From: Bilabrum cf. latius
Lineage: Eukaryota
NCBI GenBank assembly: GCA_965178125.1
Contig: OZ237756.1
Location: 558,001-622,000, forward strand
Length of the DNA stretch: 64,000 nt
Reading direction: 5' to 3'
Within the stretch, counting starts at the first letter, position 1. Each line of letters opens with the position of its first letter. The position numbers were made by a program, and so were the translations under genes. Positions 34,961 to 62,241 of the stretch are shown here, piece after piece. Under the pieces are notes generated by a model that did no database searches, was not told the DNA's origin, and saw only the letters and a list, made by a program, of their open reading frames with translations.

Positions 34961-35061
34961 TGTTATCCGCCAAAATGTGTGTAGTTTTTATATAAGTAAA
35001 CTCTATTTCTACTATATAGTAGAAATAGAGTTATCATAACTTCACATTTTGGCGGATAACA
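34961..35061. repeat. Terminal 101-bp imperfect palindrome
   Basis: TGTTATCCGCCAAAATGTG (34961-34979) pairs with CACATTTTGGCGGATAACA (35043-35061). Inner perfect 34-bp palindrome at 34999-35032. Confidence 0.92.
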
Positions 35062-36633
35062 TATGAGGTCAATAATAACCACTTTACAACATCTTAAGCC
35101 GTAGTCCTTCATTATGTCCTTCACTTGAATATAATAATTTAATCGCTATTTATTCATATATCTACCTAATTTAATACCTTCGCGCCGTTAATGTCTATCT
35201 GTTAGACCTTCATTTGACTTAATCTGTTGAGTAAATCTCTAGCCTAAGTCTTAGGATATGCCCGCCCGAAATTGCGGAAATATATAGTCATTTAAGAATA
35301 TATGTTCGCAATTCTGGGCGCGTAGGTGTATTGAGTTTTATATTATGATTTGGTTTTAAGTATCAATTGACATTTACCACTTTAGAAAATAACTAAATAA
35401 ATACTTAAAGAGATTGACAGAAGTATTAAAGTCTTTTTAATACTTCCAATGAAAAATTTAAATTAATAAATAAAACTAAACTAATATCAACTTAATTTAT
35501 CTCTTTTTTTATTACTTGTCAATCTATACTTAAATAATTGAATATTTAAATATAACTAGAAGGAGATATTAATCACTTTATAAAGTCTTTTATATGTCAT
35601 CTCTTCAAAACTTCAAATATAAGGGTATCCCCTTAAAAATACATCCTTTAATCTATCGCCCGAAATTGCGGTAATATTATAGCTATTCAAGATATATTTC
35701 TGCAATTCTGGGCGCGTAGGTGTATTGATTTTTATTTTTCATAATTCTTTAAATATGTTTAAGTCCTTTGTTTGAGTATATGATATAAAGGAATACAAAA
35801 CGGGATAACTTAAAAATGACTCAATGAACTGGTTTATGTCAAGTGTATTACTTTGAAATGATTAATCACTAGATTAAATGGAAAATATAGGATAATTAAA
35901 TATGGTATAGTATAATACTAGCGCCCGAAATTGCGGTAATATATTAGGATATTAAGATATATTGTCGCAATTCTGGGCGCGTAGGTGTATTGAGTTTTAT
36001 ATTTTGTTAATTTTGACATAGTTATCTTATAGAGGTGTAATTTTGTAATAAAGATATTTCTAGTATGTGCTATATTAAATGTCCAGAAATGACGGCCCGA
36101 AATTGCGGAAATATATAAGTATTCTAGAAATTATGTCCGCAATTCTGGGCGCTTAGGTGTCTTCAATAATTAATAATCAACTACTTCTTTATTTTGATTA
36201 ATTTTTTTGACTTACCGTTCATTTTATTGACCACTTAACGGGATATCACAAAAAGACTTAACCACTTGACGAGATATTTTAAAATAACTAATAATAAATA
36301 TGACCGCCCCAAATTGTATCTCCAGATATGACCGCCCCAAATTGCGGAAATATATAAGTATCAAGAAAATTATGTTTGCAATTCTGGGCGCTCACCCGTA
36401 TTCAATTTTACATATTCACTAAGTCATACCACTTGAAGTGGTCCATTTGATCTTGTGTTCATATTTAGAATGTCCTTTAACTTGTATCAATGTATTGAGT
36501 ACTTCTTCTAACTAGTCCTTAACAAATGATTTTGTCTTATGATATGTCTTGGTAGTCTTCACCTATTTAATAACTAATTTACAAGTCTTACCGACAATAT
36601 ACTAAGTTAATAAATCTTGTATCATAATATATT

Positions 36634-37041
36634 ATGTATGAGATAATTATTGATGGATTCAAATATAAACCCTCTACTCGTAGAAATAAGAAATATGATG
36701 TATTCAAAAATGGTAAGTATATCACTAGCTTTGGTGATGCACGATATGCTCAATACTTTGATTTGATTGGTAAGTATGGAGATAATAACCATATTGACCC
36801 TAAAAGACGACGCCTATACTACCGAAGACACGGGAAGACTACCGATACTAATAGCTCAAAATATCACAGTCATAAAATCTTATGGGGAAGTGATAATGCT
36901 ATTAAGGACTACTTAACAAAACTAGCCAATGGAGTATTAGATGTAAAAAGGTATGTTAAAGGGGATACTTTGGAAAAATGGTTAGATGACTATAGGTCTA
37001 AAGTGGACGCAAGACTGAAACAATTAAAAATATTAAATTAA
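36634..37041 (+). CDS. Small basic viral protein of a family common in NCLDVs and virophages (DUF5754-like)
   Basis: PSTRRNKKYDV...SFGD.RY.QY...D.KRR..Y..RH motif, recognised from memory. Confidence 0.6.
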   Translation: MYEIIIDGFKYKPSTRRNKKYDVFKNGKYITSFGDARYAQYFDLIGKYGDNNHIDPKRRRLYYRRHGKTTDTNSSKYHSHKILWGSDNAIKDYLTKLANGVLDVKRYVKGDTLEKWLDDYRSKVDARLKQLKILN

Positions 37042-37198
37042 AAAGTCAATACGCCTACGCGCCCAGAATTGCGAAAATATATCTTGAATAGCTATAATAT
37101 TACCGCAATTTCGGGCGCCCAAATTTGAATCGAGCTTAAGACATCTCGTTTAATTAGACTTAAAAATAATATATTATTATAGTATATACTATATTATA

Positions 37199-37732
37199 AT
37201 GTGCTATAAATGTCGTAACTTCATAATCAATAAGCTAAAGATTAATGACTGGAATAAGATAGCCCCTCTATTAATACCAGCTGGAGAGACTAGAGAAGAA
37301 GACGGAAAGTGTATCTGTGATCACCAAATTAAGGAAGTTCATTTCGTTGAGTATCCCCCAACTGGTGATATATTTAAATTAGGTTCTGAATGTATTAATA
37401 ACACATTCGAAAAGGATCATGATGTGTATAAGGCTTGTATGTATAAGACTTGTGATGTATGCTCTTGTGTTGTTAAACGTAGTAGCTGGAAAAGTCATAT
37501 TAAATCCATTAAACACGAATTAAATAAAGACATATTAAAAGATAAGAGTAGATGCACTGATTGCGATGAGTTCATTGAAAAACATAAATATAAAAAGACT
37601 TGTCTTAGTTGTTATAATAAAAAGAGGAAATACTCACAATGTAAGAAATGTGAAAAGTATCTTATTAAACCAGGAGCCACTTTCTGGTTTTGTTATGACT
37701 GTAACTAGAAGAGAAAGAAATATAAGAAATAA
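37199..37732 (+). CDS. Cys-rich zinc-finger protein
   Basis: Multiple CxxC pairs and a C2H2-like CDVC...H.KSIKH. TAG at 37706 is read through to TAA. Confidence 0.7.
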
Positions 37733-37772
37733 TGTTTAATTTACGCCAACATATTATATCGTCTTTATATAT

Positions 37773-38006
37773 ATGTACGACTTGAAAATTATAATGTCTC
37801 CCAAGTTTTTAAAAGCTTGTAAAAATAATAAAGTTATTGAAAAGGCTATAAAAGCTATTGAAGACAATTTAAAAGATGAAATTAAATTATGTTTTGATGG
37901 CAATGAGTGGGATATGTCAAATGGATCATAGACTCTTTTTTATAATCTTCAAAGTAAAGAAGAACGAGAAGAAATATTAAAGAAAAATGGAACAATTACA
38001 ACATAA
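37773..38006 (+). CDS. Hypothetical protein (77 aa)
   Basis: Preceded by the CGCCA...TATATAT motif; one internal TAG; TAA stop. Confidence 0.5.
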
Positions 38007-38092
38007 ACAACTAGAAGAAATAACAGAAGACAATATGTTATAAAATCGTTTAATTAACGCCAAAATTTATATCTACTATATATATAGTAAAT

Positions 38093-39748
38093 ATGACTAA
38101 TAAAGGCAAGACATACACTAGAGGTAAAATATCTTACACGTATGGTGATGAACCGACAAAAAATCAAAAAGATAGTGATAATTTAGAAGCCACTATTAAG
38201 GGACTACTTGATAAAGGGTTTAATGAGATACCAATCACTAAAGAAAGTATTAAAAAGATTCCTTTATACTCTTACGTTTCGTACATCTCAAATATCAAAG
38301 GAAAGCCACTATTTAGAAGAGGTGGGGTAATTAACTCAATATAGAAGGATGGAGACTATTTCACTTTATATAACTTAGTGAGTCGTGTTCATTTTAGCGT
38401 TCAATAGTCTAACCTAGTTCGTCTTTTTTATAAGATGACTAAAGCTTAGACGAAAAAACTTAATAAACCAACCGGTAAATTAATTGAAGTAGAAGATGAG
38501 GACGACAAAGACAAATTTAATTATAAACCAATATTAAAGAAACTATATTATGAAGAAGGTAATGTAGTCAGTCGTGATGCGTTATATGACCTAGCTAGAC
38601 AAAAAGATAAACGTATTAAAAGACGACAAGTAGAAAAGTGGTTAAATAACTAGATGCTCCACCAATTGACCAAAAAACGACCTAAACAGTCAGCAGTAAG
38701 TTCTTTTGTACCTACTAAGCCTTTCTCAATTTACGCATTGGACTTAATAGACATGCAAAAGTATTCAGACACTAATGACGGCTATAATTGGATATTAAAT
38801 ATAATGGATATATTCACAAAATACCTATGGAGTATTTCATTAAAAGATAAGACATTAGTTAATATAATTCGTGAGATGAAGAAACTATTTAAGAAACCTA
38901 ATTGGAGAAAACCGACTGTTATGTTAAGTGATAATGAGTTTAATAAAGAGGCATATATTAAATTTATGAATGACAATGACATAAAACCACTATTCACCAT
39001 CGCAGGAAATCCATAGTCTAATGGTGCAGTTGAAAGACTTAATAGGACTATAAAAGAATAGATTAGAAAAGACTTTGCTATTAAGAATGACAGTGATGGT
39101 GTTTGGCATACGTCATTATAGAGACTAGTAAGAGCTTATAATAAGAGAAAACACAACACTATAGGAATGTCTCCAATAGAAGCAATGAAACCTGAAAATT
39201 TAGAAGTAGTTAGATCTAGAATTGAAAATAAGAAATTATCAAATAATTTTGACGGGAATGATAAAGATCTTAATGTAGGGGATAGAGTTAGAGTATTACT
39301 TGAGAAGAACAAGTTTAAAGGGAATTTATTCAATTGGTCTAGAGAAGTCTTCACTGTTAGATAGAAGACCAAACCAAGAAATCCTAAGTAGAGGATTAAA
39401 TATAAAGTAATGGACAAAGAGGGAGAACCTCTTACTGGATTCTTTAATGCTTCACAGTTATAGAAGATAGACAATGTAGAACACGAAGATAAGGTAAATG
39501 ATGACATAGACAAGGAAAGTGAAGAGCCTGAAATTGATAATGTTGAAGGTTTAGAAGTAGAACCAGACACAATAGAGAAGTTTTTAGATAAAAGACAAAA
39601 TAAAGATAGACTTATTGAATATTTAGTCAAATATAAGGGATATTCTAATAAGTTTAATGAATGGATTACCCGTAAGAAATTAGAATAGGATTATGGGAAA
39701 GACCAAATACGACCACTTGCGAAAGACTATTCTGATAGATAGAGATAA
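38093..39748 (+). CDS. Retroviral-type (rve, DDE) integrase with C-terminal chromodomain, 551 aa
   Basis: One frame with about 12 TAGs: LYY...RDALY...WLNN*M, DLID, SDNE, P*SNGAVERLNRTIK, YN...H.TIGMSP, and chromodomain EYLVKYKGY...NEWI. Confidence 0.93.
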
Positions 39749-39978
39749 TTAATCTAGTAATATACTTTATGGCATAATACCAGCGCCCCAAATTGCGATA
39801 ATATATTAGGATATTAAGATATATTTCCGCAATTCTGGGCGCGTAGGTGTATTGATTTTTATAATTATGTCATTTTATGTTAGCCAGTGTTTAGATACGA
39901 CTTTTAAAATAATAATTTTTTCTAGTATTTACCATATTAATATAAAACAAAGTCAAAGAAATTATTTATAATAAGTAT

Positions 39979-40659
39979 ATGGAATTGTTAAATATAACAA
40001 GATACAAAAATAAAGACCTTCTAAAAAGAGTAGTCAAGTTAAGTGAAAAGTACAAGTGGTCTCGTGATGACTTAAAAATGTTATGGATTAACAAGCATTA
40101 TTCAAGTTTATAGGGTGAAATAGATGATGAAGGGGACGAGATAGCAACTATAAATTTAGTGAGACAACCGTCTAAAATAGAACCTATCTAGTTAAAACCT
40201 CCACAATTAGAACGACAATAGGCTATATTGGAAGATGTTGAATTAGATAGCGAAGACATAGAGGATAATAAAGAGGAAGACTATTTGAATGATACATATA
40301 GTGATACAAGTAGTGAAGTAGTGAGTGAAGTCATTGAAGAGAAACCAATTAAAGAGAAACCAAAACCAAAAATCAATATTAGTGATCTTACAGTGAGTGA
40401 TAAACCTGAATATGTTTATTGTGTAGAGATTAATGATACAAAGGTATATTTTAACAAAAAGAATACATAGACTTATCCTGATGCTTTAAGAAGAGGTAAA
40501 TCACACGCTGATAAAATGAGAAAGCGAGTATTAGGACATCTTCATTTTGATGAGACCGATATGTATGACAGCAACTTATGGTATGCTAAAGTGTGCTGGG
40601 GTGATAGTGATAAAATTCATGATAACTTTACAAAGTTTAAAAATATCTTATTAAAATGA
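39979..40659 (+). CDS. Hypothetical viral protein (226 aa)
   Basis: ATG to TGA in one frame with four TAGs; acidic middle region. Confidence 0.65.
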
Positions 40660-40678
40660 CCACTATATATATAGGTAA

Positions 40679-41185
40679 ATGAAAAACACAATTTGGAAGT
40701 TTTTAAATGAATACTTTGATGTCTTTAGTTTAATACTTAAAATACGAGACGAAAACCCTAGTGATGTCATAAGTACTATAATAGCAATGTATGAAGAGAG
40801 CGAAATAGAAGACCCAAAAGAGATCCATAAACATATGAGTGAAATACGTCATAACTTGGAACTTAGATTTAAAACAAAGTATGTTGAAGTCCTAAGCACC
40901 GATCACGATGACAAAGCAGAAAGCTATCTCCATCTTAATAATATATTATGTAATATTGAAGGAGAGCAATATGTGGAGGATAGCAAAATCAAGATGTCCG
41001 AGAAAAAACAAGTATTTATAAAGACTTACGGTGATGTGGATAAATTCAACGAGACTGTCCAAGAGATGGAACAAGAAGACGAAAAGACTAAAACAGGAGT
41101 AGAAAAAGAAATAGATCAAAAGTTAAGTCTATTATGTAATACTTCTAAACAACCAGACAATATTTGTCTAGATTATAAATTGTAA
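40679..41185 (+). CDS. Hypothetical acidic viral protein
   Basis: 168-aa ORF preceded by CCACTATATATATAG. Confidence 0.7.
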   Translation: MKNTIWKFLNEYFDVFSLILKIRDENPSDVISTIIAMYEESEIEDPKEIHKHMSEIRHNLELRFKTKYVEVLSTDHDDKAESYLHLNNILCNIEGEQYVEDSKIKMSEKKQVFIKTYGDVDKFNETVQEMEQEDEKTKTGVEKEIDQKLSLLCNTSKQPDNICLDYKL

Positions 41186-41297
41186 TATCAGTATGTATTT
41201 TAATTATAAAAATACAAATTGACAGGTTAGATACGACCGCCCCAAATTGCGGATATATTATAGCTATTCAAGATATATTTCCGCAATTCTGGGCGTC

Positions 41298-41612
41298 TCA
41301 CCGTGTTGATTTTTCCACACGTTTTAACTCATTCATAATTTCTAAATCAAGTAAGCCATTAATAATACGAAAATCTTTGTAATCTTGCGCCATCTAAAAC
41401 ATTCCTTCATATTTAGGCAACATAGCCATTTTAAGACCTAGGATAGACTTAATATCTTCGTAGGTAATAATCTAGTCTTTTTCTACTTCTTTTAGCTCTT
41501 CAACTTCACAAATACGAAGGTCCTTTCCATCAAAAAATTGATCAAAAGCTGTCTTTACCTTTTTTAATATATTGTTCAAACTTTTTATGTTATAAATATT
41601 ATTAAAGTTCAT
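41298..41612 (-). CDS. Hypothetical protein (104 aa) flanked by two hairpin repeats
   Basis: Promoter motif upstream on the minus strand; two TAGs; the TGA stop lies inside the repeat tail. Confidence 0.6.
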
Positions 41613-41768
41613 TTCTATATATATATAGTAAATATTTTTTGGCGGAATAATTAAACTTAGGATCTAACCGCCCGAAATTGCGGAAATATTATAGCTATTC
41701 AAGATATATTTGTGCAATTCTGGGCGCGTAGGCGTATTGACTTTTGTATTATTTTGTATTTATTTGTA

Positions 41769-42407: not shown

Positions 42408-42450
42408 TTTATTATATTAATAAAAAAGATATTTCTATAATTAAACTCAA

Positions 42451-43173: not shown

Positions 43174-43416
43174 TACTTATATTATATTAGCTAGACTAGA
43201 TATTTTTTTTTTAAATTACGAGATTTTAAAAAGTTAGTAGTATAAGATATAGTATAATACTAGCGCCCCAAATTGCGATAATATATTAGGATATTAAGAT
43301 ATATTTCCGCAATTCTGGGCGCGTAGGCGTATTGATTTTTATAATTTAGTCATTTTTAATATAGCCACCTCTTACAATGTAATATTTTTAAATTAAAATA
43401 TTATAGTATATACCAT

Positions 43417-44859: not shown

Positions 44860-44898
44860 CGTATAATTATATTATGATAATAGATAATATTATTAAAT

Positions 44899-45342: not shown

Positions 45343-45627
45343 TATAATAAAGAACTATAATATTTCTTATTAATATATGGTTAAATTAACAAAGTAGTAG
45401 CTAAAGTATTATTCACGATTTGATGATCCTAACGCCGGATGGGGTTCGGTGTTGATGCCAGAGTGGGAGCGCGTGAACGTCTCGTTGGGTTCCGATGGCG
45501 GTTGCGACCGGGAAGGTGCGACCAAGCCAACGGATTGCTTGCGATGACGCGCATACCCTCTCTGTGTTCAGGAGAGGGGCGGAGATTGGGTAATTTTTGA
45601 AGAAAGTTCCTGCTCCGTTCATTTAAC

Positions 45628-48600
45628 ATGAACGGCGCCGGTAGCCATCGGATCGACCCGGCGGCGCGGGCACCTGGAAGCGCCAGGGTGATCGCCGCAG
45701 CTGCAGTGTTCGCTCGCGCGGTAGGCCAACCTGCGGTCACGTTGGCCGATTTAGCTACTCGATATGGTATGAATGATGCTGTGTTCTCGGATTTCATTGC
45801 TCGTCTCAACGTGCAGCGCGACACCATGGCGCCTCGAGATCTTGATCTTCAACGTGCACACGATGCGGGGTTCCTGTGCTATTTGCTCGACAGGTACTCA
45901 TCAAAGCAGTCCTTCACGGCATCACGGTCCATTAATGCTGTCAAGAGCACCGCTCTCGCCAAGTTCGTGTCAAATGGGACGCTAACGACTCTCGGTGCAC
46001 GGCTGCTTCTGCCGGCATCGCCGAGCTCCCCTCGACGGCAACAGCCTGAGCGACTCGCAGGACAAGTACGTCTTCATCATGTTCAGCAATCTCCAGAGGC
46101 TCCTTCTTCAATCGAGTCTCCATGGTCCCTGAGTTCACTACCGACGGGCCGGCGGACAGCTCCTCTTAGCGGACGGCATCGGCCACCAGGACGCCTCGAC
46201 TTCGGCGCCGCCATCCATGCTTCACCTGGACGCGACCGAACGGCGTAGAGTGCCACCAGGACAGGCCGCGGAATTTCGCCCTTGCGGGCGCGGCCAGGCT
46301 CTTCGACGACGCGGCAGGCCCCGCTCGCGCGCGGCGGGCGGGCCCACCTGCACGAGTCCCCGAACCGCGGGCCCCCGGGGACAGCAGCAGATACCCAGCG
46401 CAGCGCCCAGCCCAACTTCTCAACGTCTTCACCCCCGCGGCACCAACCTCCACCTGCCTCGAGCATGATCCCCGGTAGACCAGGCACTCGGGACTTCGGC
46501 GATCCGACAGTGCTCGCGGAGGCGCTCAGCAGTGCAGCATCACGGTCAACGGGCCCGGCAGGCCCTCAGCTTCTTCTTCCTCGTGTGTCTCCGGCTTACG
46601 ACTCCCCCGGCGTGACTCCGGGCACCAGCCGCTAGCTTGACGCGGTCTGGGGCCGCCTTCCTGGGGATCTCCAACGGGCAGTGTTGCACTCCACGACGCT
46701 GCGGGGAACGGCCGACCCAGCGACAATTCTGCATCTACGCCTGTTTGCGCTGTGGCACAGCATTCCGACTCTGCGCCAGGAAGAGCTGCTGTCGCGCCTC
46801 TCCGCCCACGTGGAATTACAATGGTACTTCTCGCACCGACTGGCAGCCTCGATGCACTCATCCCCGCCACCGGTCGACGCTACACCCGCTCATCAGCCAC
46901 CCCGTGAACCTCCTGTGTCATCTTCTGCCTCACCGCAGCCTGCGTCTTCAATTGACCCAGTTTCACCGGGCGCAGGCACGGCAGTGGACTCCGCGGCCGT
47001 TCGCTCGCAACCAGTGGAGATTTTGTAGCGTGAGGCCTCTGCACCTTCAATCGCTGCAATTCGAATGCAGAATTGGTTTTCTGATGATTTCTTGGCAACG
47101 TTGACCTCGATCTTTCGCCAATCCGCGTTCATGCCGCGGTTTTGCTAGGCTGACGCGCTTCATTTGGACGCTAGCGGCCGCGATTTCGCTGCAGAACTGG
47201 CCCGTGCTCTGTTTGGTCAGGCCGTGACGAGAGCCAAGATTGAATCGGCTATTTTCTCGTTCACGAGCCGGCTTCATGCAGCTCTGCCGATGAGCAATGC
47301 TAGTTTTGGGAAGTTCGATGCGTCCAACTCGGAGTCGTCTGCTGCAGGCGGACGAGAAAAGTAGGTGCCATCTAGCGAGTTACTATGCACTATTTACTCG
47401 GCTATTTCCTTTGCTTTAGGCTGTGTGCTCGTGCGCGCTGCTTGCGTGCATTCGGCGGCGTCCTTGCCGTCCTGGTTGCCGCAGGGCAGCAGCTCGTGGT
47501 CGTGTCCAGCATCACTAGTGCCCGATTGGAAAACCCTGGGGCAGGTTCGCAATGATTTTCTTCGTTTGGTTAGTGCTTCCGGGGCATCATCTGCATCGGC
47601 GTCCCGACTAGAGGTGGTGTTTGCCGCTGTGTGTGTGATACCACGCGGAAGTTCAGCCTTTGAGATGCTCTCCTCCCATGCTTGGCGCCATACAGGCGAA
47701 CGCTGTGACGTTGAGATTCGTGACCTTGTTGGGAATGAGATTCCTTCGTGCTCTTCTGGCGACTGCATGCGTCTCCTACAATTGCTGCATCCGTGGGCCA
47801 CTGAGGCATGCAGATCAGGCGAACCTGGCCTCGTGCGCGGACTGCTACAGGGAGTCCAGGCTGACATGCAGGCGCCGTCCCGTCGAGCAGCACTGTCCCG
47901 TCACTTCGACCCCCGCGGGGGCAGTGGAGGCCGGGGCAGTGGAGGCGGGGGCAGTGGAGGCTCCAGGCGCAGTGGGGGCGACAGCGACCAGCCCAGTACC
48001 GATCGTGGCGGAGGTCGACACCGTCGAGGCCGTGGACGTGGCGGTGCAGGCCAGCAAGGTGGCCAGCACCAGCGTGCGGACCGGCAGGACGGGGGTTCCA
48101 CCAGGAAGTCCAAGGAGCCTTCACCTGACCCTCCCCCACGAGGTACGTCACGTCAGAGCCAGCCCAGCACTCCAACACCAACACTGCCGCAGGGGCGTAC
48201 GCAGACTACCACCACATCGGACGCGTGTGCTGCTTCCACACCACCTGTCACGTCAACGCCCGCGCTTCACCCAGTCCTGGTGGCCCTAGCGCGCCCTAAG
48301 CGACCGCAGCGGCCGCCCACGGCGTCATCCACGAGGCTGCCAGGTAGGACGGACATCTCTCCAGCATTCGTTGACTGGGCATATCCAGCTCCGGATCCAA
48401 GCCATGAGTGGGCAGGGACGACAGCACCCTCCGTAGAGGACTTCATCCAGCGAAAGGACGATCACCAGCGTACCAGAGACTGTCCCGGCGAATTCGTGGA
48501 GGCTCCAGCTGCGACGTGGGACCGTGAGCGGATCCACCTGAAGGTTCACGAAGACCCGCTGGCATTCACGCCACGCAAGTACTTCGACAAGGTGCCTCGC

Positions 48601-51387: not shown

Positions 51388-51581
51388 TGTGTTTGGACCG
51401 TGCTGGGGTCGCCTTCGAGGTCATTAGGCGATTCGGCAGATGGAAGTCGGCATCTGCATGCGAGGTGTACTTGCGGGGCGTCAGGGAAGGCTTGCCTCCT
51501 CTGGAGCTCGGCGGCAGGAGCCTCGATTTGAACAGGCCAGTGTGGGTGCTGGCCAGCGCGCTGCGGCTGAACTTGGAGTGA
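50523..51581 (+). CDS. Ngaro tyrosine recombinase, overlapping the polyprotein in another frame; start unresolved
   Basis: LRLGEL, HKAD, GHSIRIAA, GRWKS...Y (R-K-HxxR-W-Y set). Four TAGs; TGA stop. Confidence 0.88.
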
Positions 51582-53049
51582 GCCACACAGCCGCAGCGTA
51601 CAAGACATGGCGGTAAGATTTGGCGGAGTAGTGCACGTGCTCTTCCCAGCCCCGGTCAGTCCGGTCAAGGGTAGCGCACAGGCACAGCTTTGTCAGGTCT
51701 TGCCATGTCTGATTGTTAACGAGACTAGGTTGCGCGTACACTCTGGCATCATGATCCTAACGCCGGATGGGGTTCGGTGTTGATGCCAGAGTGGGAGCGC
51801 GTGAACGTCTCGTTGGGTTCCGATGGCGGTTGCGACCGGGAAGGTGCGACCAAGCCAACGGATTGCTTGCGATGACGCGCATACCCTCTCTGTGTTCAGG
51901 AGAGGGGCGGAGATTGGGTAATTTTTGCCCACCCTCCCAACCCCCTCCTCCTCGGCGGAGTAGTGCACGTGCTCTTCCCAGCCCCGGTCAGTCCGGTCAA
52001 GGGTAGCGCACAGGCACAGCTTTGTCAGGTCTTGCCATGTCTGATTGTTAACGAGACTAGGTTGCGCGTACACTCTGGCATCATAATAAGATATTCAAGT
52101 CTTTTAAAATAAATAGAAGTGATATTTATTTAAATGGTTCATATTCATTTACTCATAATATGCTTTCACTTTGGGCTGGAGACATAGACCTATACTCTCC
52201 CGTTAAATTGTCTGATGTCAATAGTGTTATAAATGAATTAAAGACCTTAAGAGGTAGTAGATTAATACATATTTATAACGTTGAATATGATGATAATGGC
52301 GTCTCTTTAGATACATTTCTTGATACTAATAGACCTAAAATATTAAAATCTTTAAAATAGTAGAATAATCCTATGATATTCGTTGAAAGTTGGGTCTATA
52401 CTGGATATATTGAAGAGGTTAGTATATTATATGATATTGGAGGTAAGATATTGAAAATGAAGCCTAAACAAGTAGCAGATAGGATGATAGATGACATAAA
52501 AGACTTACAAAAAGAACGAAAATATTTCAAGATATTAAAAAGACTAGATGTTATATATGACGAATTAGGGCAAAAGAAGAAACAGGAAGAGATTGAACAA
52601 CTTATAAAGAATCCCGATGTAGGCTTTCTTTACTTGACTATTACAAGATTAAAAAGTTTATTACTTCCAACAGTTCCATTTAAATTAAAAAATAGAGTTA
52701 TTGATAGACTTAAGAATGATGTACGTAAATTAGGACTTATTAAACCAGTATATCAATACTTTAATACGTTCAATAGTAAAGATGTAAGTATTATAATTAA
52801 ATATTTAGAAGACTAGCTCAATAAAAGGGTCGTTAAATTAGTTTCACATAATTGAATACACCTAAACGCCCAGAATTGCAGACATAATTTTCTTGATACT
52901 TATATATTTCCGCAATTTGGGGCGCCCTATATTGTGAGATTTTCATTAGATTGACCCGAAAATGTAAAACCTCTAACAGCCTACGCGCCCAGAATTGCAC
53001 AAATATATCTTAAATAGCTATAATATTACCGCAATTTGGGGCGGTCGTC

Positions 53050-53571
53050 TCACCAGTCACTATAAAATAGCTCGTCAATGTCTTCTTCGTTAAGTTTATT
53101 AACTTTTTCTGTCGGATGGAGGGGATTATCTGGTCGTATGTCATGTAAATAGCACTTAAGTCTGAAAAATTTTAGATATTCATAAATTAACTACATTTGA
53201 AAAAAGTCTTTTTTAAATAACCTTTCCCACTCAACGGATTGTTTAAATTGTTCTATACATTCATTTATTTTCATTGAATTAGCATAGTCAAAGTTGAATG
53301 TTTTTAAGTGATCAAAAGAAGACGATACATATCCGTTATCATTTAACGTAAAATCCATATCATAATAGTACTTTTTACTGCAATTGATAATACATTCTCT
53401 ATACTTACGAGCAATTAGAAGACAAGTTATATAATTAGTATAGCAATCTACTCTATCAGTTGTCATCATATTACGCTACTCTTCTGCTTTCTTATAGTAC
53501 TAATTAACTTTACATGAGTACTTATAAAATGATTTAATATATCTTTTTGAAATTAGAAGTTTGTGATCCAT
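53050..53571 (-). CDS. Hypothetical viral protein (173 aa)
   Basis: ATG to TGA with three TAGs. Confidence 0.6.
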
Positions 53572-53716
53572 AATTCTATATATTTATATGATATTTTAAT
53601 CATATTCTTAAGACTGTGCACTCTAAAATGAATATTTGAAATGGCTACTTCTCACAATATACCTTTTGAACCCACTAATTATTAGAAAAATAATAAATAT
53701 TAACATATAGTATATA

Positions 53717-54784
53717 ATGTCATTATCATACGATGAAATACCAAATAGTCATTTAGTTGCTTTAAGAGAATACAAGCACAAGAAGAGGAACAAAAGCGTC
53801 TTTTTTAGTGAAGATGTAGGGGAAAAAGTCATAACTCCAGAAGATATAAGTGATGATTTACTTGAAGAGTATTATGGAAAGAGAGCAATTAAATATGAGA
53901 AGAATAAAAAAGCATTACGTGAAGAGATGTGTAAGCTAGTGAATGGAAATAAAAAACTAGTTAGAAAGACTAACGAGTTAAGAATAGATGATAAGAGTTA
54001 GTTTGAAATAGTCCCATTCTTTGATGATGAGACCAAAAGACAAATACACTATTTAAGTGGTTAGGCTGGTGCTGGTAAGTCTTATATTGCTAAGTCTTTA
54101 CTCAAGTATTATCATATGTTCATTCCAAAGAAGAGGGTTTTAGTCATTACACCAGTACAGGAAACAAATCCAACTTATTTAAAATATGGTAATTTTATTG
54201 ATATTGATAAATTAGTAGCAGTAGATAGAAACGATAGTTATGATGACTTAATGAGGAAATACAAAGAAGAAAAGATATTCTTTAGGTAGGAAAAGAAGTC
54301 ATTAGAACCTCATGAATTAATTAAAAGAGAGATAGAGATAGAAAGAATGAAACCAACAAGTAAAGACAAGACAAAGGCATCATTTACCACTACTCCATTG
54401 TATGAAGAATGGGCAAAATAGGGTCCTTCTGTGGTGGTATTTGATGATTATGAAGCCTTAAACGGTGATAAAAAGTAGAGAGCGTTATTCTTAATTAAGC
54501 GTATAGGTGAAGTTGGAAGACATAGCTCAACAAATATGATAGTTATAAGTCATTTAACGAATGATTATGCGAATACTAGGTCAATAGTCATGGAAAGTCA
54601 TAATATTATTTTATTTAAGAGAAATCTATGGAAATTTAGCAAATATTTAATGAAAGCATATTTAGGATTTGATGCAAGTCTTATAAATCGTGTTTATAAA
54701 TTGTTTGGAGAAGGTAATAGATGGCTATGTATTAATAAGACTTATAATTTTATCACTTGTCCTAAATAGATGTTCGTATATTAA
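53717..54784 (+). CDS. FtsK-HerA/A32-like DNA packaging ATPase (355 aa)
   Basis: Walker A SG*AGAGKS, Walker B VVVFDD, GRH...IVISH, TRSIVMESH. Confidence 0.92.
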
Positions 54785-54803
54785 TTTTCTTAGTATTAAG
54801 TAT

Positions 54804-55352
54804 ATGGATATAACCACTGCATTAAGTCCTGAAGAGGTACAAAGACTATACTTTACATTTACAAAGTAGCATATACCAGTTATAATGTATGAAGAAATAA
54901 GTGATACTAATAACATCAGACAATTTCTAGATGAAAATCCTTTATTTGTCCTTTATTATCCTAACTTAGTAGAAGGAGCAACAATGAGCGGTCATTATAC
55001 TGCGGTCATATTTAACAAATCAAAGAATACTCTTTATTTTTGGGATAGTTATGGTCAATTACCTGATACTCATATTCCAGTTGTAGGTGGAGTCATAGAC
55101 CCATAGAAGCTATATGATAGAAGTAGTCTTCTAATAGATCACGTATTAGATGCTGGTATTAATGTTGACTATTCAAATCAAAAGAATCAATTAATATCAA
55201 ATAACTCTGCCACATGCGGGAGGTGGTGTGTGCTCAGGATATTATTCCATCACTTGACGAATGATTAGTTTAATAGTCAATTAAAGAAGGCTTTTAAAAA
55301 GTATGGAGGAGGACTAGATAATGATGAACTTATTACTTTGATAATTAGTTAA
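54804..55352 (+). CDS. Virophage maturation cysteine protease (adenain/Ulp1-like, 182 aa)
   Basis: GHYTAV, YFWDSYG and Q...ATCGRWC supply the catalytic H-D-Q-C residues. Confidence 0.92.
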
Positions 55353-55709
55353 TATGACATATACCATAAATTTTTAGATATTGAAAATTGATATCTATAA
55401 GGTGGCCAAATTAAAAAGACTAAAATATAAAAATGAATACGGGTAAGCGCCCAGAATTGCGGAAATATATCTTAATATCCTAATATATTATCGCAATTTG
55501 GGGCGCTGGTATTATACTATATCTTAAGATACTAAATTTTTAAAATTTCGGAATATTGGATTTTTTCAATGAGTCAAATAATTAATAAAAACTTTTTTAA
55601 AAAGTCAATACGGGTACGCGCCCAGAATTGCGGAAATATATCTTAAATAGCTATAATATTACCGCAATTTGGGGCATTAGACAAGACTTTTCTTGATAAA
55701 TGTTATAGA

Positions 55710-56636
55710 ATGGTAGAGATTCAAGAACCAGATATCTTTTATATTAACTCATAGGATACTATAACATCTATTAATACTAATAGACCAGTATCAATACATG
55801 AACAGCGTCAAGGTAATATCTTGACAAATTCACAAAACTACTTATTATCACTTGACCGATGGACTCTTAAATGTCGTATTCCTTTATTTGTAGCAAGTAA
55901 AGAAGTAAAGAATAGCGATAATTAGTCAATTTATAAGATGTCGTTTGTGAAGAAGAGTGATGGAACTACTTACACTCGTAATATTGTCTTAACTAAGCCG
56001 TTATATTATAGTCTTAAGACCCTATCTAATGAATTTAATAATACTCTTAGTGATTTATGTGGAGATGCTAGTATTCCAACTGATAGTATAGTATTTGAAT
56101 ATCACGGTAAGACTAAAACATTTAGTTTCACCCGTTTAGCCGCTTTTACAAGTGCGTGGACTTTAAGTTTTAACTTTCCTTTATTCTCTATCTTTGAGAC
56201 ATTTGAATATGACGATGAAGGTAAAGACATCAAGAGTGATACTTATATAAATCTATTAGATGGATATAATGAATAGAGTGCTTCTACCTTAGATTAGTTT
56301 CCTACTATGGAGTATATTCAAATTATTAGTCCATCACTTCCAATACTTCCAGAATTTACGCCATCATATAAAAGTACATCTAGTACAGAGATACAAAGTG
56401 AAAATATCTTAAGTGATTTCAAGATAGACAATACAACAGGAACGAGTTTTATTAAAATAAACTTTAGTAGTGGAGGAAATCATAGATGGCAATAGTTCTA
56501 TAGATCAGCATTTAATAGTTATAGTATAGTACCGTATTTTAGAGATACTTTTGGAAACTTATACGAAATACCCTTTACTTTTGGACAAGGACTTAATATA
56601 AAAGCTCTATTTAAAAGTAAAAAGTTAATAACTTAA
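55710..56636 (+). CDS. Minor capsid (penton) protein (308 aa)
   Basis: Located between protease and MCP. N-terminal IFY...R...IL.N...Y..S..R...IPLF pattern; beta-rich; several TAGs. Confidence 0.78.
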
Positions 56637-56678
56637 AGTAAAAAATAAATAAATATCTTTAGTCTTAATATATTTATA

Positions 56679-58565
56679 ATGTCTGATATGGATAATGTAC
56701 CTGTAGCAGCACAAAGCAAAGTCGTAGATGACGTCTCAGAACTACCAGTAACTCAAATAGCTGACGAAAAACTCAACTTTGTGGGTGATAGTCAAGCTAT
56801 TACTCTAGGAACTACCCTTGGATACTCTTCCAAGTTTCAAAATCACTACGAACCAGATGGTGGTAACTCTAGCGCAACTAATGCATTTAGAAGTAATTAT
56901 ACTTTCGTAGTGCCATCAAATCAAGGAATGACTGACAGTAATCCCCGTCTAAGAGTTTCATTTGACGTATACATCTATGATAGTTAGAACAATGGAGCAG
57001 TAGCTCAAACTGATATCGTCAATAAGGTAGCCCCTTCTACATTTATGGTAAATTCAATGATCACAAGTTCCACAGTTAAAATGGGAGACTTATCTCGTAG
57101 TTCATCACCTTATCAATTAGTCAATTTAATAGCTAGAAGTCTTGACCGTGCCACTCTAGCACAAATAAGTCCTGTCTTTTAGGCTGATAACACTTGGGAA
57201 TTTAATACTGCCGCAAATGGTCTTGCTAAGTCTGTCCTTCAATGGGGTGTAAATGATGATAGTATTATGGAAGCTCGCGGTCCTGGTAAGAATTACCGCG
57301 CAACACTTGAAAAAGTGGATGCTAATACTCCAATACCTAATAATAATGTAACACCAACTCAAGACTATGTCAAATTACATATTGAAATCTCTGAAGCACT
57401 TCTTGCACGTCCTTTCCAATATATGATGGGTGGTAATGCTAGACCTTTTGTTGATCATCCACAATGAAATGTTAATTTACAAATGAGAAATAACTTAATT
57501 GATAAGATGTTTAATACTTCAAGTGATTGGAATGGAGACTATGCTTTTGCTTTATCCGATTGCTAGATCCATTTTGATGTCTTTACTTATAATACTCATC
57601 TTAACTTCTTGAAGAAAGTACCTAAACAAATATTCTACAACTCTGTTGACTTTGAACTACATGAAGAGCCTAAACTTGATAATCCTATCACTACTAAAGG
57701 TGTCCATACTTTTAATAATTATCAACTTTAGACTTGCCCTTCTTGGTTTGCTGTGTGCTTAGTTGATTCTCAATATGGAGAAGCTAGTGGTACACCTCAT
57801 AGAACACTTGCCATTAACAATATTAAAGTACAACTTAGGTCTTAGGGTTCTATTTTAGGAGAACTTACACAAGACGATATCTTTAGACTTAGTGAAAGAA
57901 ATGGATCAAATAGTGAGTATGCTTCTTTTACTAACTTAGATGTAACTGTAGGAGGTGCTTCTAAAGTATACGGATCTAATGGCTGGCTCTTATTTAGACT
58001 TAGTGATTTAAATACTCCTGAAACTATTCAAAGCAACAGTGCTGACCCTATTAGTATTCGTGTTCAAGTAGCCAATGACGAACCCCCAACCGCTGCTATG
58101 TCTCAAGGATATAAAGCTCAATTATTCTGTGCCTATGACAAGATTATCGTGAATACTAGAGGTGCCGCTATTGAATGGCGTGAAGATAGTGCTTCTGTTG
58201 ACCCTGAGAAAGTGGCTAAACCTTCTAATTATACATTTTCTAATATGAACTACTCTAAGAACGTATTAGGTGGAAGACGTCGTAAAGTGATGCAATTCTT
58301 TAAGAGAGCCTTTAACAAAGCTAAAGACTTAGGACGTAAAGTGGTAGACTTTGGAAAGAAAGCTAAAGCTAAATTTGATAAAGTGAAACCAGCTCTTCGT
58401 AAAGCAAGACAAGCAGTAAGTGAATACTTACCCGATGAAGTGAATGACTTAGCTGAACGTGTTGGAGCAGGTCTTTTAACTAGTGGTGGAAGTCTTTTGA
58501 CCAGTGGAGGTAAGAAATTAACTAAGGCTCAACTTATGAAACTTAGAAAGTAGCTCAATATGTGA
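56679..58565 (+). CDS. Major capsid protein (629 codons) with one internal TGA at 57465-57467
   Basis: Long beta-rich frame after the penton gene. C-terminal LGG|RRRK basic tail with repeated TSGG, as in processed virophage MCPs. Confidence 0.82.
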
Positions 58566-58752
58566 GTCGTAAATTATTAATTAATATTTAAAAGTTATAA
58601 ATATTGACTAAATTTAAAAACTCAATACGGGTACGCGCCCAGAATTGCGAAAATATATCTTGAATAGCTATAATATTACCGCAATTTCGGGCGTTCATAT
58701 CTTAAGACTAGTTTAAATATTACGCCATTAAATATCCACTATATATATAGTT

Positions 58753-59175
58753 ATGGCAGCAGTATCACCGTGTGAAGACTTACTTTATATGGAGTATTCA
58801 TTCTTATTCTTACCACATAGAGAAGACCCAACACTTAAATCTCAAAAGGTTTACTTAGATGATGAACTTGAAGGAGATCCTGAAGACATTGTAATAGATA
58901 AAGATTAGATACAAGTAAATAATAGAGGTCATATAAAGACATATGTAAGTGAAGGAGGCTTTACAAAGTTAAAGGTAGGATAGATAATTGAAGAGATGGA
59001 GCAAGAGGTGCGTAATTAGAATGGTATTCATTATGATTGTATTTTTTATCATAAAGTTGAACACGACACGAGCACAGATATTTATAAAGTAGTATGGGGG
59101 TGGTATCCAGCAGACTTTCCAACAAATGGATGCGACCCTGCTATCTTGTATAAGAAACCCCCTAATATGGATTAA
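58753..59175 (+). CDS. Hypothetical protein (140 aa), single-gene unit between hairpin repeats
   Basis: Promoter motif, four TAGs, TAA stop. Confidence 0.65.
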
Positions 59176-59286
59176 TTATTAAAAACTCAATACGGGTACG
59201 CGCCCAGAATTGCGGAAATATATCTTAAATAGCTATAATATTACCGCAATTTCGGGCGGTCATATCTTAAGACTAGTTTATTACTT

Positions 59287-59317
59287 TCGCCAAAAAATAT
59301 CCACTATATATATAGTA
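59287..59317 (+). promoter_or_regulatory. Representative copy of the conserved viral promoter-like motif
   Basis: CGCCAWWW-N5-8-YCYACTATATATATAG lies immediately before the ATG here and at 38093, 58753, 60255 and 41612(-), with partial copies before 37773 and 40679. Confidence 0.75.
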
Positions 59318-59707
59318 ATGTCAGATAAAGTAGATTTAAAAATATCGTTTTCTCAAAGTCTTGTATCAAGTGTAAACCTTGATTGGGATGGAATAGGTAA
59401 GATGTTATGTGGAAAAATCACAAGTAAGATAGAAGGAAATGAGATAGTGTTAAGACAAATAGGTCAACCGACTCCAAAAGATGGAATGATGGAGTTCTCA
59501 TACACGACCGACTATAAAGCAAATCAAGTTTTTGAATTACTTAAAGACTTAACTGATGAAAGACAAGACGCGATTATGGGATACGTTCATTGTAAGTTAA
59601 GTGATAGCAACAGGAAAAGAAGACCATTAACTGAAGAAGATCACAGACAAATGATTCTGGATGCTATGGATAGGAGTGTTAAAGAATATAAAAAACATAT
59701 GTCATAA
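59318..59707 (+). CDS. Hypothetical protein (129 aa)
   Basis: ATG directly after the promoter motif; TAA stop. Confidence 0.7.
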   Translation: MSDKVDLKISFSQSLVSSVNLDWDGIGKMLCGKITSKIEGNEIVLRQIGQPTPKDGMMEFSYTTDYKANQVFELLKDLTDERQDAIMGYVHCKLSDSNRKRRPLTEEDHRQMILDAMDRSVKEYKKHMS

Positions 59708-59769
59708 TTAAGTCTTAATAATAAAGTCTTAATATTAAAGTTATTAATATTAAGTCATATCTATGTAAT

Positions 59770-60085
59770 AAAAAAAAATTTCTTTGAGCTAGTAATTATA
59801 CCGATGGTTTGACTACTTGGCGAAGTCATTCGTAAGTCATTGTTGTAGCGGAGATGCGAATGTCAACCATGGACCGCTATCCCTATTAAGTCTTACGACT
59901 AAGTCTGCTACAACCACTTACGACTACTTCTACAGTATCCAAACTCCCTTCAAAGACTTGCAAGACGTGTGCTTTGTCATGAAAATGACTTACAGAACGA
60001 CTCACGGCGATGTCAGTGGTGGGAATCGAACCCACGACCTTGACTTTGTGAAACAATCACGATATCACTAGACCAAGACCACAAC
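59770..60085 (-). ncRNA. Candidate tRNA-headed, Pol III-type structured RNA
   Basis: A-box TGGTCTAGTG (60075-60066), B-box and T-arm GTGGG-TTCGATT-CCCAC, downstream long stems, and a T9 terminator at 59778-59770. Confidence 0.5.
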
Positions 60086-60254
60086 GCACCAAGAGGTTAA
60101 AAAAAAAATATTCAAATAAATTTTAAAATTCAATACGCCTAAACGCCCAGAATTGCAGAAATATATCTTAAATAGCTATAATATTACCGCAATTTCGGGC
60201 GGTCATATCCTAAGTTTGATTATTCCGCCAAAAATATCTACTATATATATAGTA

Positions 60255-62096
60255 ATGTCAGATAATTTAGACTTCCATTTAATTAAACAAGTTGATGATA
60301 TATGTTTCACTGGTGTTGAATTCTATTAGGGATATCGAATAACTCAAGGTGAACAGCTTAAACAACTTAATTACTTATTCGTAGATAACAAAAAGGATAT
60401 TGATAAGTTTGTATCTATTTCATTTGTAAAAGAAGCAGATAAGGATGAGTTTGAGCTATTACTGGTTAATGAAAATGGAAAATTAGAAGACGACACAGAT
60501 ATATTAATGCTAACGCCGAATGGGGTTCGGGGTTGATGTGGCGATGCGTTCGAGACTCGAACACAGGCTCCGGTCTACCAACGCGAGGTTGCAACCGCCA
60601 GTGCGACCAGCAGCTTGCGAGGCATTCCCTCGTCTCCTTCCTTAGGGAAGGGGGCGGGGCAGCGCGGCAGTGGCCGTTCCGGCTCATGCCGTTGTTTTGT
60701 TTAGTATTTATGTTCGGTTTGGTGCTCACACGGGTAGTGCTTAACGCCGTGTCAACTATCGCGCGTGTCCATGTGGGTCCGTTCGGCCTACATCGTGCAT
60801 CCATCCTCGGCCTACTTGGCGCTCCAGTGGATCCGAACCAATATTTACTTCGATGTGATCCATCTTTCTCGGCACATCGATGGGACTTCGGTCCGTTGGG
60901 CTCGGCTGCTGCTTGCGCCACGGTCTCCCGGGTGTGTGCTCGCCGATGGCATTTTCGCGCGATCTCTGCGTCCCTCCCTTTCGTACTTGTTCCTACGCAC
61001 GGCCATGCATGTAGAAACATATTCAAATGGTTCGATCTTACGGTTTTCCGACGACCCAGCCTTTCCGTTGGCGAGGCGCGCTCCGCTTTTCCGGTCGCAC
61101 CTCGAAAGCAACCACTTTCGGCCAGATCAGCCATCGTACCAGGATACAGCACGATTTGCACCTATCGAGTGACTGATCATTTGAATTGTGCAGGGTGGGC
61201 ACGTAGTCAGCTTGGACTCCATCGTCCTCTGGCTGCCGACGACAGCAGGCTCGGTGAGCCTTCGTCATCGTCCAGACAACCCTGCAGCTCGCACCAGGCG
61301 TGCGTGCAGGAGGTCGAAGCGAGCAGCGCGGTGTGGCGCAGCTCGTAGACGGAGGCCGGCCTGGAGCCTGGTCGGTTGACGCAGCATCAGTGGTGGGCTG
61401 GTGCTGTGTCTTGCGCGGGTGCCGGAGCTTGGCCACGGTGGCCTGCTGCTCCCTGCGCCCCACGCGCAGTTCCTCCCGCTCCGGCGGATGAGTCAGCAGT
61501 GGCACGTTGCCACCGGCTGACGACGACAGCAGGCTCGGTGAGCCTTCGTCATCGTCCAGAAAACCCTGCAGCTCGCACCAGGCGTGCGTGCAGGAGGTCG
61601 AAGCGAGCAGCGCGGTGTGGCGCAGCTCGTAGACGGAGGCCGGCCTGGAGCCTGGTCGGTTGACGCAGCATCAGTGGTGGGCTGGTGCTGTGTCTTTGCG
61701 CGGGTGCCGGAGCTTGGCCACGATGGCCTGCTGCTCCCTGCGCCCCACGCGCAGTTCCTCCCGCTCCGGCGGATGAGTCAGCAGTGGCACGTTGCCACCG
61801 GCTGACGACGACAGCAGGCTCGGTGAGCCTTCGTCATCGTCCAGAAAACCCTGCAGCTCGCACCAGGCGTGCGTGCAGGAGGTCGAAACATCATTAAAAC
61901 AGAGAGAGACCTTATTAAGTACTTGAAAGAAATAGATTTAAACAAAAAAGACTATTCAAATGATGATGTTATGTTGTCAACATTTCCAATTATAATGATG
62001 AGCATACGAGATCTAGTAATCAATAGCAATATTGGTTCAATTGAGAGTATCAAAAAAGGTGATACAGATCAATTTGACCACTTGAAAGATAACTAA
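60255..62096 (+). pseudogene. Hypothetical viral gene (150 aa) interrupted by a GC-rich insert; join(60255..60503,61893..62096)
   Basis: Removing the insert gives in-frame ...EDDTDI|IKTERDLIKY... Confidence 0.7.
60504..61892 (+). mobile_element. Non-autonomous Ngaro-related element with ~2.3 internal 284-bp tandem repeats (61238-61888)
   Basis: Starts TTAATGCTAACGCCGAATGGGGTTCGG, compared with ATGATCCTAACGCCGGATGGGGTTCGG in the Ngaro A repeat. Ends in CATC like Ngaro B2. No RT or YR. Confidence 0.78.
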
Positions 62097-62241
62097 ATAA
62101 ATTCAATACACGTACGCGCCCAGAATTGCGGAAATATATCTTAAATAGCTATAATATTACCGCAATTTCGGGCGGTCGTATCTTAAAAGATTTTAATACA
62201 TACGATATCACTTATTAAGTTTTTTATTAATAAGTCATAAT

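Follow-up and report, generated by a model that had tools for sequence, protein, structure and literature searches.

The stretch of DNA analyzed here, 64,000 nucleotides (nt) from the eukaryote Bilabrum cf. latius (GenBank assembly GCA_965178125.1, contig OZ237756.1, positions 558,001 to 622,000; hereafter the window), holds an integrated virophage element that carries 18 full copies of one directional hairpin repeat. Because these repeats lie at gene 3’-ends and their asymmetric tails adjoin stop codons, we favor the interpretation, with a probability of roughly one half, that they represent sequence-specific, directional transcript-end hairpins of the virophage genes.

Results

A family of 18 directional repeats

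The same 18 copies were recovered with an nhmmer profile, with an exact two-box pattern, and with a covariance model (R1). The exact pattern matched 18 times in the window and 0 times in 100 shuffles, and the covariance model returned 18 matches with scores of 81-112 bits. The copies, together with one 20-nt fragment, are all located between positions 35,245 and 62,192, and none was found elsewhere in the window, i.e. in the 35 kb of flanking host DNA (1-34,960), in the 6.7 kb Ngaro-type retrotransposon that interrupts the element (45,423-52,087), or after position 62,193. A first-pass annotation of the window had listed 18 directional hairpin repeats, which are identical with these copies.

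The unit has a length of about 77-100 nt and is composed, in this order, of a 5’-tail, a 13-nt box L, a 32-nt AT-rich spacer, and an inverted 13-nt box R. Box L (CGCCCAGAATTGC) is identical in all 18 copies, and box R (CGCAATTT[C/G]GGGC) is identical save for one position. The spacer comprises exactly 32 nt between the GC...GC ends of the boxes and occurs in three to four subtypes (75% identity), and the tail (AAAAnTCAATACnnnTA; about 17 nt) has a mean pairwise identity of 68%. Outside the unit, identity drops to about 35%. The inverted boxes and the asymmetric tail had been recognized in the first-pass annotation, but both had been given a length of 14 nt, whereas the invariant part of the boxes is 13 nt (with up to 16 nt paired) and the tail is about 17 nt long.

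The nhmmer scores were 68-104 bits in the sense and 18-29 bits in the antisense orientation, so that the polarity of each copy is unambiguous. Nine of the ten copies to the left of the Ngaro element point one way, the exception being R06 (37,036-37,135), and all eight copies to its right point the opposite way. The strand scores thus bear out the polarity that had been annotated. The copies and the fragment are as follows:

R01, 35,245-35,344, minus strand: subtype d; non-coding left terminal region; 96.6 bits
R02, 35,639-35,738, minus strand: subtype a; terminal region; 102.7 bits
R03, 35,904-36,003, minus strand: subtype b; terminal region; 105.6 bits
R04, 36,076-36,175, minus strand: subtype c; terminal region; 85.1 bits
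Fragment, 36,297-36,316, minus strand: 20 nt with box R and 3’-flank, duplicated beside R05
R05, 36,315-36,414, minus strand: subtype c; tail adjoins the stop codon of a doubtful 69-aa open reading frame (36,416-36,625, minus strand)
R06, 37,036-37,135, plus strand: subtype a; tail holds the stop codon TAA of the DUF5754 gene (36,634-37,041, plus strand); polarity exception
R07, 39,766-39,865, minus strand: subtype b; between the integrase gene (plus) and g226 (plus); the sole copy antisense to both neighbors
R08, 41,220-41,319, minus strand: convergent junction of g168 (plus) and g104 (minus); tail holds the last 5 codons and the stop codon of g104
R09, 41,651-41,750, minus strand: after g212 (minus), followed by the promoter-like module of g104
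R10, 43,246-43,345, minus strand: subtype b; after g480 (minus); a 142-nt stretch matches the R13 region in inverted orientation with 91% identity
R11, 52,843-52,943, plus strand: subtype c; tail holds the stop codon TGA of g231 (plus); convergent junction
R12, 52,962-53,061, plus strand: in tandem with R11; stop codon of g173 (minus) 6 nt from box R, on the antisense side
R13, 55,424-55,523, plus strand: subtype b; after the protease gene (plus)
R14, 55,595-55,694, plus strand: forms a tandem with R13; precedes the penton gene
R15, 58,612-58,711, plus strand: after the major capsid gene (plus), followed by a promoter-like module and g140
R16, 59,177-59,276, plus strand: immediately 3’ of the g140 (plus) stop codon, followed by a promoter-like module and g129
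R17, 60,120-60,219, plus strand: 413 nt after g129 (plus), followed by a promoter-like module and g93
R18, 62,093-62,192, plus strand: convergent junction; the frame of g93 (plus) resumes after an insert and stops with TAA at the tail; the primase-helicase gene (minus) ends 50 nt beyond

Several copies are obviously related to one another beyond the boxes. Two tandem pairs (R11-R12 and R13-R14) and a terminal cluster of five copies (R01-R05) are present, and the fragment beside R05 looks like a slippage product. Identical spacers occur in inverted orientation on both arms of the element (R07=R10=R13, R14=R16=R18, and R06=R15), and so do whole intergenic cassettes of 140-190 nt that include the repeat, with 78-91% identity.

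The majority spacer subtype ends in TAATATTAC beside box R (R02, R06, R12, and R14-R18, i.e. 8 of 18 copies), a sequence found nowhere else in the window. It corresponds to the nonanucleotide that is nicked by Rep proteins in hairpin origins of the geminivirus type. Because no Rep-like protein was found among 13 unannotated proteins at E<=10, its presence in the spacers is probably a coincidence in AT-rich DNA.

The virophage element and its genetic code

The host DNA is GC-rich (about 53-67% GC) up to about position 34,960. It is followed by the AT-rich element (about 30% GC), which has its left end at about 34,962, reaches the end of the window, and extends past its right edge. The element is broken by a GC-rich block at 45.4-52.1 kb, which corresponds to the Ngaro-type retrotransposon with its split direct repeats:

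45,423-45,599 = 51,751-51,927: Ngaro split direct repeat 1, 100% identity
51,622-51,755 = 51,954-52,087: Ngaro split direct repeat 2, 99% identity

Pfam matches were obtained for an integrase with rve and chromo domains, a packaging ATPase, a cysteine protease, and a V20-type capsid domain. Judged by this set of proteins, the element is therefore an integrated mavirus-type virophage.

With the standard genetic code, only short open reading frames (ORFs) are present in the AT-rich element, and when TAG is read as a sense codon, tiled genes appear. The 20 virophage genes contain 70 in-frame TAG codons, no TAA codon, and one TGA codon; they are terminated by TAA in 15 cases and by TGA in 5 cases, and never by TAG. 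Three TAG codons of the primase-helicase gene align with glutamine in 13 of 13, 11 of 13, and 13 of 13 distant homologues, and glutamine was the best-scoring residue over 13 TAG columns. Most likely, TAG is a sense codon for glutamine in the virophage element. Also, the Ngaro ORF (45,628-51,387) forms a single frame of 1,919 codons with 11 TAG and neither TAA nor TGA when TAG is read as sense, and the host flank contains a frame of 1,757 codons (5,232-10,502) with 14 TAG and, again, neither TAA nor TGA. The host nuclear code seems to read TAG as glutamine as well. The gene ends that were used for the placement of the repeats depend on this reassignment because the gene map rests on it.

Placement of the repeats at gene 3’-ends

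The recoded map contains 21 gene junctions. Repeats were present at all three convergent junctions, at 8 of the 15 tandem junctions, and at none of the three divergent junctions. When junctions with a gene 3’-end and a gap of more than 100 nt were considered, a repeat was found in 11 of 11 cases, compared with 0 of 2 divergent junctions that have gaps of about 145-150 nt (Fisher test, p=0.013). In the seven 3’-end junctions that are free of repeats, the next co-oriented gene follows after just 19-86 nt, a spacing that would be expected of co-transcribed genes. The hairpin is located 2-95 nt past the stop codon at 14 gene ends, and 413 nt past it in the case of g129. The statement in the first-pass annotation that all copies lie at gene boundaries holds only in part, as R01-R04 occupy a 1.45-kb terminal region with no convincing ORF, and gene boundaries become legible only when TAG is read as sense.

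In 11 of the 12 copies that have a gene on the tail side, this gene is co-oriented and its stop codon faces the tail; R07 is the exception (one-sided binomial test, 13/4096, about 0.003; counts of 10/11 and 9/10 yield 0.006 and 0.011, respectively). R18 was counted among the informative copies because the frame of g93 resumes past an insert and stops at the tail of R18. For the DUF5754 gene, g104, and g231, the stop codon falls inside the repeat unit. Thus, a rule based on the gene strand fits all informative copies but R07, and the remaining six copies (R01-R04, R12, and R14) were taken as local tandem duplicates. A rule based on the genome half fits 17 of the 18 copies, with R06 as the exception.

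A promoter-like module, GTTTAA...CGCCAAAA...AT[C/T][C/T]ACTATATATATAG, precedes six genes, with its end 2-4 nt away from the ATG:

38,048-38,092: promoter-like module
40,634-40,678: promoter-like module
41,613-41,660, minus strand: promoter-like module
58,711-58,752: promoter-like module
59,276-59,317: promoter-like module
60,213-60,254: promoter-like module

The module sits between the repeat and the next ATG, and therefore the intergenic regions have the layout stop codon, repeat, putative promoter, and ATG. It is not the TCTA motif of CroV and mavirus that is described in PMC8547959.

Predicted structure and selection

Hairpins are predicted for either strand, with energies of -19 to -33 kcal/mol and z-scores of -2.4 to -4.7. 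One A-C/A-G mismatch and one G-T wobble are retained in 18 of 18 copies. Variable columns were absent from the boxes (0 of 24) and frequent in the intervening spacer (23 of 32; Fisher test, p=9e-9), and the identity of the spacers between subtypes is only 52-73%. Gene conversion cannot homogenize two boxes and yet skip the stretch between them. Therefore, on the basis of this comparison, the boxes are under purifying selection, which excludes neutral junk. Such selection would be compatible with a reading of the boxes as RNA, as single-stranded DNA, or as duplex DNA alike.

Confinement to the virophage element

Target-site duplications were searched for with k=3-8 at all boundary offsets from 0 to 45, and the counts were never above the permutation null. 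In addition to the window, contigs of three runs of unrecorded kind were examined. The contigs of two of them, X1 and X2, hold the element; they break at the same repeats, and the collapsed repeat words have about 4-16x the single-copy depth. The third run, X7, is labelled with the same organism and study as X1 and lacks the element; 0 of its 4 matching records touch the repeat, its content of host genome being taken from the label. A host-wide miniature inverted-repeat transposable element (MITE) was rejected because target-site duplications were not detected and because copies were absent from the host flank, from Ngaro, and from the X7 records, even though the boxes could serve as the terminal inverted repeats of a MITE. 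A MITE of this kind, with target-site duplications and spread throughout host DNA, had been named in the first-pass annotation as one of the findings that would speak against its interpretation; the other, a lack of covariation or of conservation in related elements, did turn up, so that the outcome is mixed.

The exact two-box pattern was absent from IMG/VR and from JGI metagenome contigs (0 matches in each), and the sole match to Rfam in the window at the gathering score was a host tRNA. Among the 13 unannotated proteins, no Rep/HUH family member and no transposase was found at E<=10, although the element exceeds the window and remote homologues may escape. A site-specific recombinase other than the rve integrase was not seen in the window. 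Within the data examined, the repeat appears to be private to this virophage element.

Relatives of the virophage and of the repeat

The nearest full-length relatives of the ATPase are 35-38% identical, and a word search recovered the ATPase itself and one 198-aa fragment. Close relatives of the major capsid protein were not found in IMG/VR with one half of the protein as query, nor were close relatives of the primase-helicase found in JGI metagenome contigs and viral contigs. By these comparisons, the virophage lineage is isolated. Two primase-helicase proteins encoded on short contigs of about 4 kb, P0153 and P0154, are 88% and 84% identical to that of the element, and therefore closely related elements exist.

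The first-pass annotation had proposed a covariance model as a check of the hairpin. This model found nothing significant in 42 related virophage loci (best E=0.22). A scan of the same loci for recurrent hairpins, which allowed 2 mismatches and recovered 17 of the 18 window copies as a control, yielded a single analogue, in the distantly related metagenomic virophage L035, a complete IMG/VR genome of 26,977 bp:

3,130-3,206: hairpin copy of L035
9,058-9,134: hairpin copy of L035
12,312-12,386: hairpin copy of L035

Similar to the family in the window, the L035 copies have inverted boxes of 16-17 bp with a conserved two-base asymmetry and an AT-rich spacer of a fixed length of 43 nt. They are intergenic, adjoin gene 3’-ends, and occur in both orientations. 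However, the sequence is unrelated, only 3 copies are present, and their orientation relative to the genes is 2:1. The L035 family also has a conserved extension of about 50 nt on one side.

The terms “hairpin” and “palindrom” have 0 occurrences in the main texts of PMC8547959 and PMC10945749, although part of the unit might be contained in the promoter-motif figure supplements of PMC8547959. A Halocafeteria virophage preprint discusses only terminal palindromes, which it links with non-pPolB replication genes, and a 2026 preprint on Sissivirus reports hairpin repeat families in the giant virus, not in its virophage. In the literature searched, we found no description of such an intergenic hairpin family in a virophage.

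Further features of the window

The left terminus of the element (34,963-35,063) consists of nested perfect palindromes that contain CGCCAAAA and ACTATATAGT, as in the promoter-like module. They resemble the terminal palindromes reported for the Halocafeteria virophages with non-pPolB replication genes.

The major capsid gene (56,679-58,565) has one in-frame TGA in the window (57,465-57,467). In the contigs of both element-holding runs, TTA is present instead (G>T at 57,466) and the gene is intact; the TGA is thus an assembly error or a private mutation. A second, short GC-rich insert (60,507-61,890) splits g93. It begins with 32 nt that match the Ngaro terminal repeat at 91% identity, and within it a 284-bp unit is repeated in tandem about 2.3 times. 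The insert is probably a relative of Ngaro that is truncated or non-autonomous.

In the host DNA, 64-bp units that are 97-99% identical form a long tandem array from 28,759 to about 32,000. A tRNA-Leu(CAA) gene (28,152-28,232) adjoins this array, about 3 kb from the insertion site of the virophage.

The word depth of the element over 52,100-60,300 was about 1,250x in run X2, which has a different organism label and study, and about 5-6x in X1, both values lacking a host baseline. The high depth could reflect either a replicating virophage or deep sequencing.

Discussion

Transcript-end hairpins as the favored function

If the repeats are transcript-end signals, a helper giant virus would presumably supply the machinery that transcribes single genes or short series of co-oriented genes, and the RNA would run through the conserved tail and then through the two inverted boxes. 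The boxes would fold into a hairpin of 12-20 bp with a fixed internal mismatch. This hairpin would be recognized sequence-specifically, possibly by a factor of the helper virus, and would end and/or process the transcript by termination or polyadenylation, similar to the “terminator hairpin” shared by mimivirus and its virophages. Because the hairpin is nearly palindromic, one copy could also serve the opposing gene at convergent junctions. The copies would spread and be exchanged within the genome via local duplication and recombination, which is suggested by the tandem pairs, the duplicated fragment, and the spacer subtypes shared by both arms.

Precedents exist for such a signal in virophages. 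According to PMC7031253, genes of virophages and transpovirons are flanked by a “terminator hairpin and late promoter” that resemble those of the helper virus. In Mimiviridae, polyadenylation occurs at palindromes that form hairpins and are cleaved by an RNase III-like enzyme, and these hairpins are individually unique, without sequence conservation, as described in PMC4402537. According to the same two sources, the hairpin signal is common to the helper virus and the virophage. In the helper virus, such a signal would be handled by the RNase III-like enzyme together with a viral poly(A) polymerase. The element described here has in common with these viruses an AT-rich genome, a palindromic hairpin in the 3’-flank of genes, and a separate promoter motif. 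In contrast, its hairpins form one sequence family, in which two 13-nt boxes do not vary, the spacer always has 32 nt, an internal mismatch is conserved, and the 5’-tail confers direction; as the boxes are identical in all 18 copies, hairpins without conserved sequence they are not. The first-pass annotation had suggested hairpin polyadenylation signals of the mimivirus and Sputnik type as one of three hypotheses. This one is the best supported of the three by the placement at gene 3’-ends and the adjacency of tails and stop codons, but the sequence conservation sets the repeats apart from the mimivirus model.

A number of results weigh against a transcript-end function. When all junctions are compared, the excess at 3’-ends (11 of 18 versus 0 of 3 divergent junctions) yields only p=0.09. 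The two rules of polarity largely coincide because Ngaro sits in the divergent junction between a leftward and a rightward block of genes; they are confounded and inseparable on the basis of one genome. Five copies stand in a row in the non-coding terminal region, where there is nothing to terminate. Compensatory changes were found in 0 of 20 stem pairs, 14 of which never vary, and the inner pairs that do vary break. Covariation thus does not demonstrate that pairing is what is selected, and half-sites that never vary and that keep a mismatch would be at least as typical of DNA bound by a protein. Also, in 39 related virophage loci with 212 junctions, structured junctions (z<-2) were about equally frequent among convergent (29%), tandem (27%), and divergent (26%) junctions; by this crude test, a general rule of 3’-end hairpins is not visible in these loci.

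Alternative explanations

Several alternatives draw on the same observations. The repeats might be selfish, REP-like or MITE-like sequences that are amplified within the virophage genome through recombination, slippage, or some unidentified recombinase. They would survive downstream of genes because they do the least harm there, they would keep the boxes for their own propagation, and an effect as terminator would be secondary, as in bacterial repetitive extragenic palindromic (REP) sequences. The inverted boxes around a variable core, the tandem pairs, the terminal cluster and the duplicate beside R05, the identical inverted spacers on both arms, the three gene ends that run into the unit, and the lack of compensatory evolution would all be in line with such an origin. 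It nevertheless appears rather unlikely, as no boundary combination revealed a target-site duplication, no copy was found beyond the element in the window or in run X7, no transposase or HUH/Rep-like protein was detected among the unannotated proteins, and the strictly fixed length of the unit and its tight tie to 3’-end junctions do not fit.

REP sequences and bacterial interspersed mosaic elements (BIMEs) are short imperfect palindromes with an asymmetric end that gives them polarity; they are extragenic, lie after genes or between convergent genes, and are often paired. The virophage repeats are like them in being palindromic, polar, extragenic, located at gene ends, paired, and present in many copies of one sequence. 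However, REPs are bacterial, number hundreds per chromosome, and have RAYT (HUH) transposases, whereas here 18 copies are contained in one viral genome of 22 kb and no such protein was found. The homologous regions (hrs) of baculoviruses are bound by proteins, and roles as transcription enhancers, as replication origins, and in recombination have been ascribed to them. They, too, are conserved imperfect palindromes dispersed in intergenic viral DNA, but they form clusters of tandem units at few loci and have no tie to gene 3’-ends.

Alternatively, the repeats could be binding sites at the DNA level that serve replication, i.e. origin-like or priming signals read by the primase-polymerase/helicase on unwound DNA. 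We consider this unlikely, although the two invariant half-sites with their exactly fixed spacing, the shared non-complementary position, and the lack of covariation would suit a protein-binding site. The polarity of 17 of the 18 copies mirrors about the genome centre, so that the same strand version would be present on the displaced strand from both ends, and the five-copy array lies in the non-coding terminus beside the terminal palindrome. The element encodes a Prim-Pol/helicase, and the link between terminal palindromes and non-pPolB replication genes in the Halocafeteria preprint points in the same direction. Gene strand explains the mirrored polarity equally well, however, because the centre of symmetry is a divergent gene junction, and it is hard to reconcile with replication that 18 sites in about 22 kb are spaced irregularly (117 to about 3,000 nt), are tied to gene 3’-ends, and are absent from divergent junctions. 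A more specific version, in which the repeats are orientation-dependent signals in single-stranded DNA, e.g. priming or loading sites for the Prim-Pol/helicase, in the replication of a hairpin-ended linear virophage genome, seems distinctly improbable. Forks entering from either end would then uncover the repeats in one and the same strand version, the five-copy array would belong to the origin region, and the position at gene ends would be secondary.

The proposal of the first-pass annotation that the repeats are multiple replication origins relied on an analogy to oriS of herpesviruses and on a UL9-like helicase, and this premise failed. The protein fragment in question had no match to UL9/Herpes_ori_bp, to a helicase family, or to a solved helicase at E<=10 (the few weak matches were unrelated). 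The full-length helicase of 932 aa and its relatives contain Prim-Pol (PF09250), PriCT_2, and ResIII domains, and on this domain composition the protein is a fusion of Prim-Pol and a superfamily 2 (SF2) helicase. The repeats and oriS do have in common that two non-identical inverted boxes flank an AT-rich spacer and that a hairpin form is possible; they differ in the lack of a UL9-family protein, in copy number (18 versus 1-3), in the 32-nt spacer, and in the position at gene ends. In any case, 18 origins tied to gene ends are implausible.

That the repeats are recombination sites for the exchange or inversion of gene cassettes between virophage genomes, another proposal of the first-pass annotation, is very unlikely. 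Recurring inverted cassettes of 140-190 nt on both arms, R07 as an inverted cassette, and the arrangement in L035, where 2 of the 3 analogous copies flank one large gene in inverted orientation, would be expected of such sites. Nevertheless, recombinant junctions were not demonstrated and nothing shows gene exchange, the only site-specific recombinase seen in the window is the rve integrase, and homologous exchange would not need selection on both boxes with a fixed spacer. Apparent joints between repeats in run X2 were not used as evidence for recombination; their sides are just 34-43 nt long, and cross-mapping is possible.

A function as promoter or 5’-leader element of the downstream gene can hardly be expected. 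At tandem junctions the repeat does precede the next gene as well, and in four cassettes the distance is constant at about 130 nt. However, it is present at all three convergent junctions, where no promoter is needed, and at none of the three divergent junctions, where two are needed; the repeat is separated from the ATG by a promoter-like module of its own kind; and AAAATTGA, the early octamer of mimivirus, shows no enrichment (3 matches versus 2.5 expected).

Implications

The reading of TAG as glutamine, which most likely applies to the element and seemingly to its host, matters for annotators of such elements. If the repeats indeed act as transcript-end hairpins, this virophage would have one sequence-specific, directional terminator for nearly all of its transcription units, unlike the mimivirus hairpins, which are defined by structure only. 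A sequence-specific signal would imply a factor that reads it, and it provides a search key. Which giant virus activates a given virophage is an open question for most types of endogenous virophages, as stated in PMC8547959 and PMC10945749. With the invariant boxes and the promoter-like module, the giant virus by which this lineage is activated could be identified, and the boxes may represent a compact, testable cis-element for studies of transcription and replication in virus factories.

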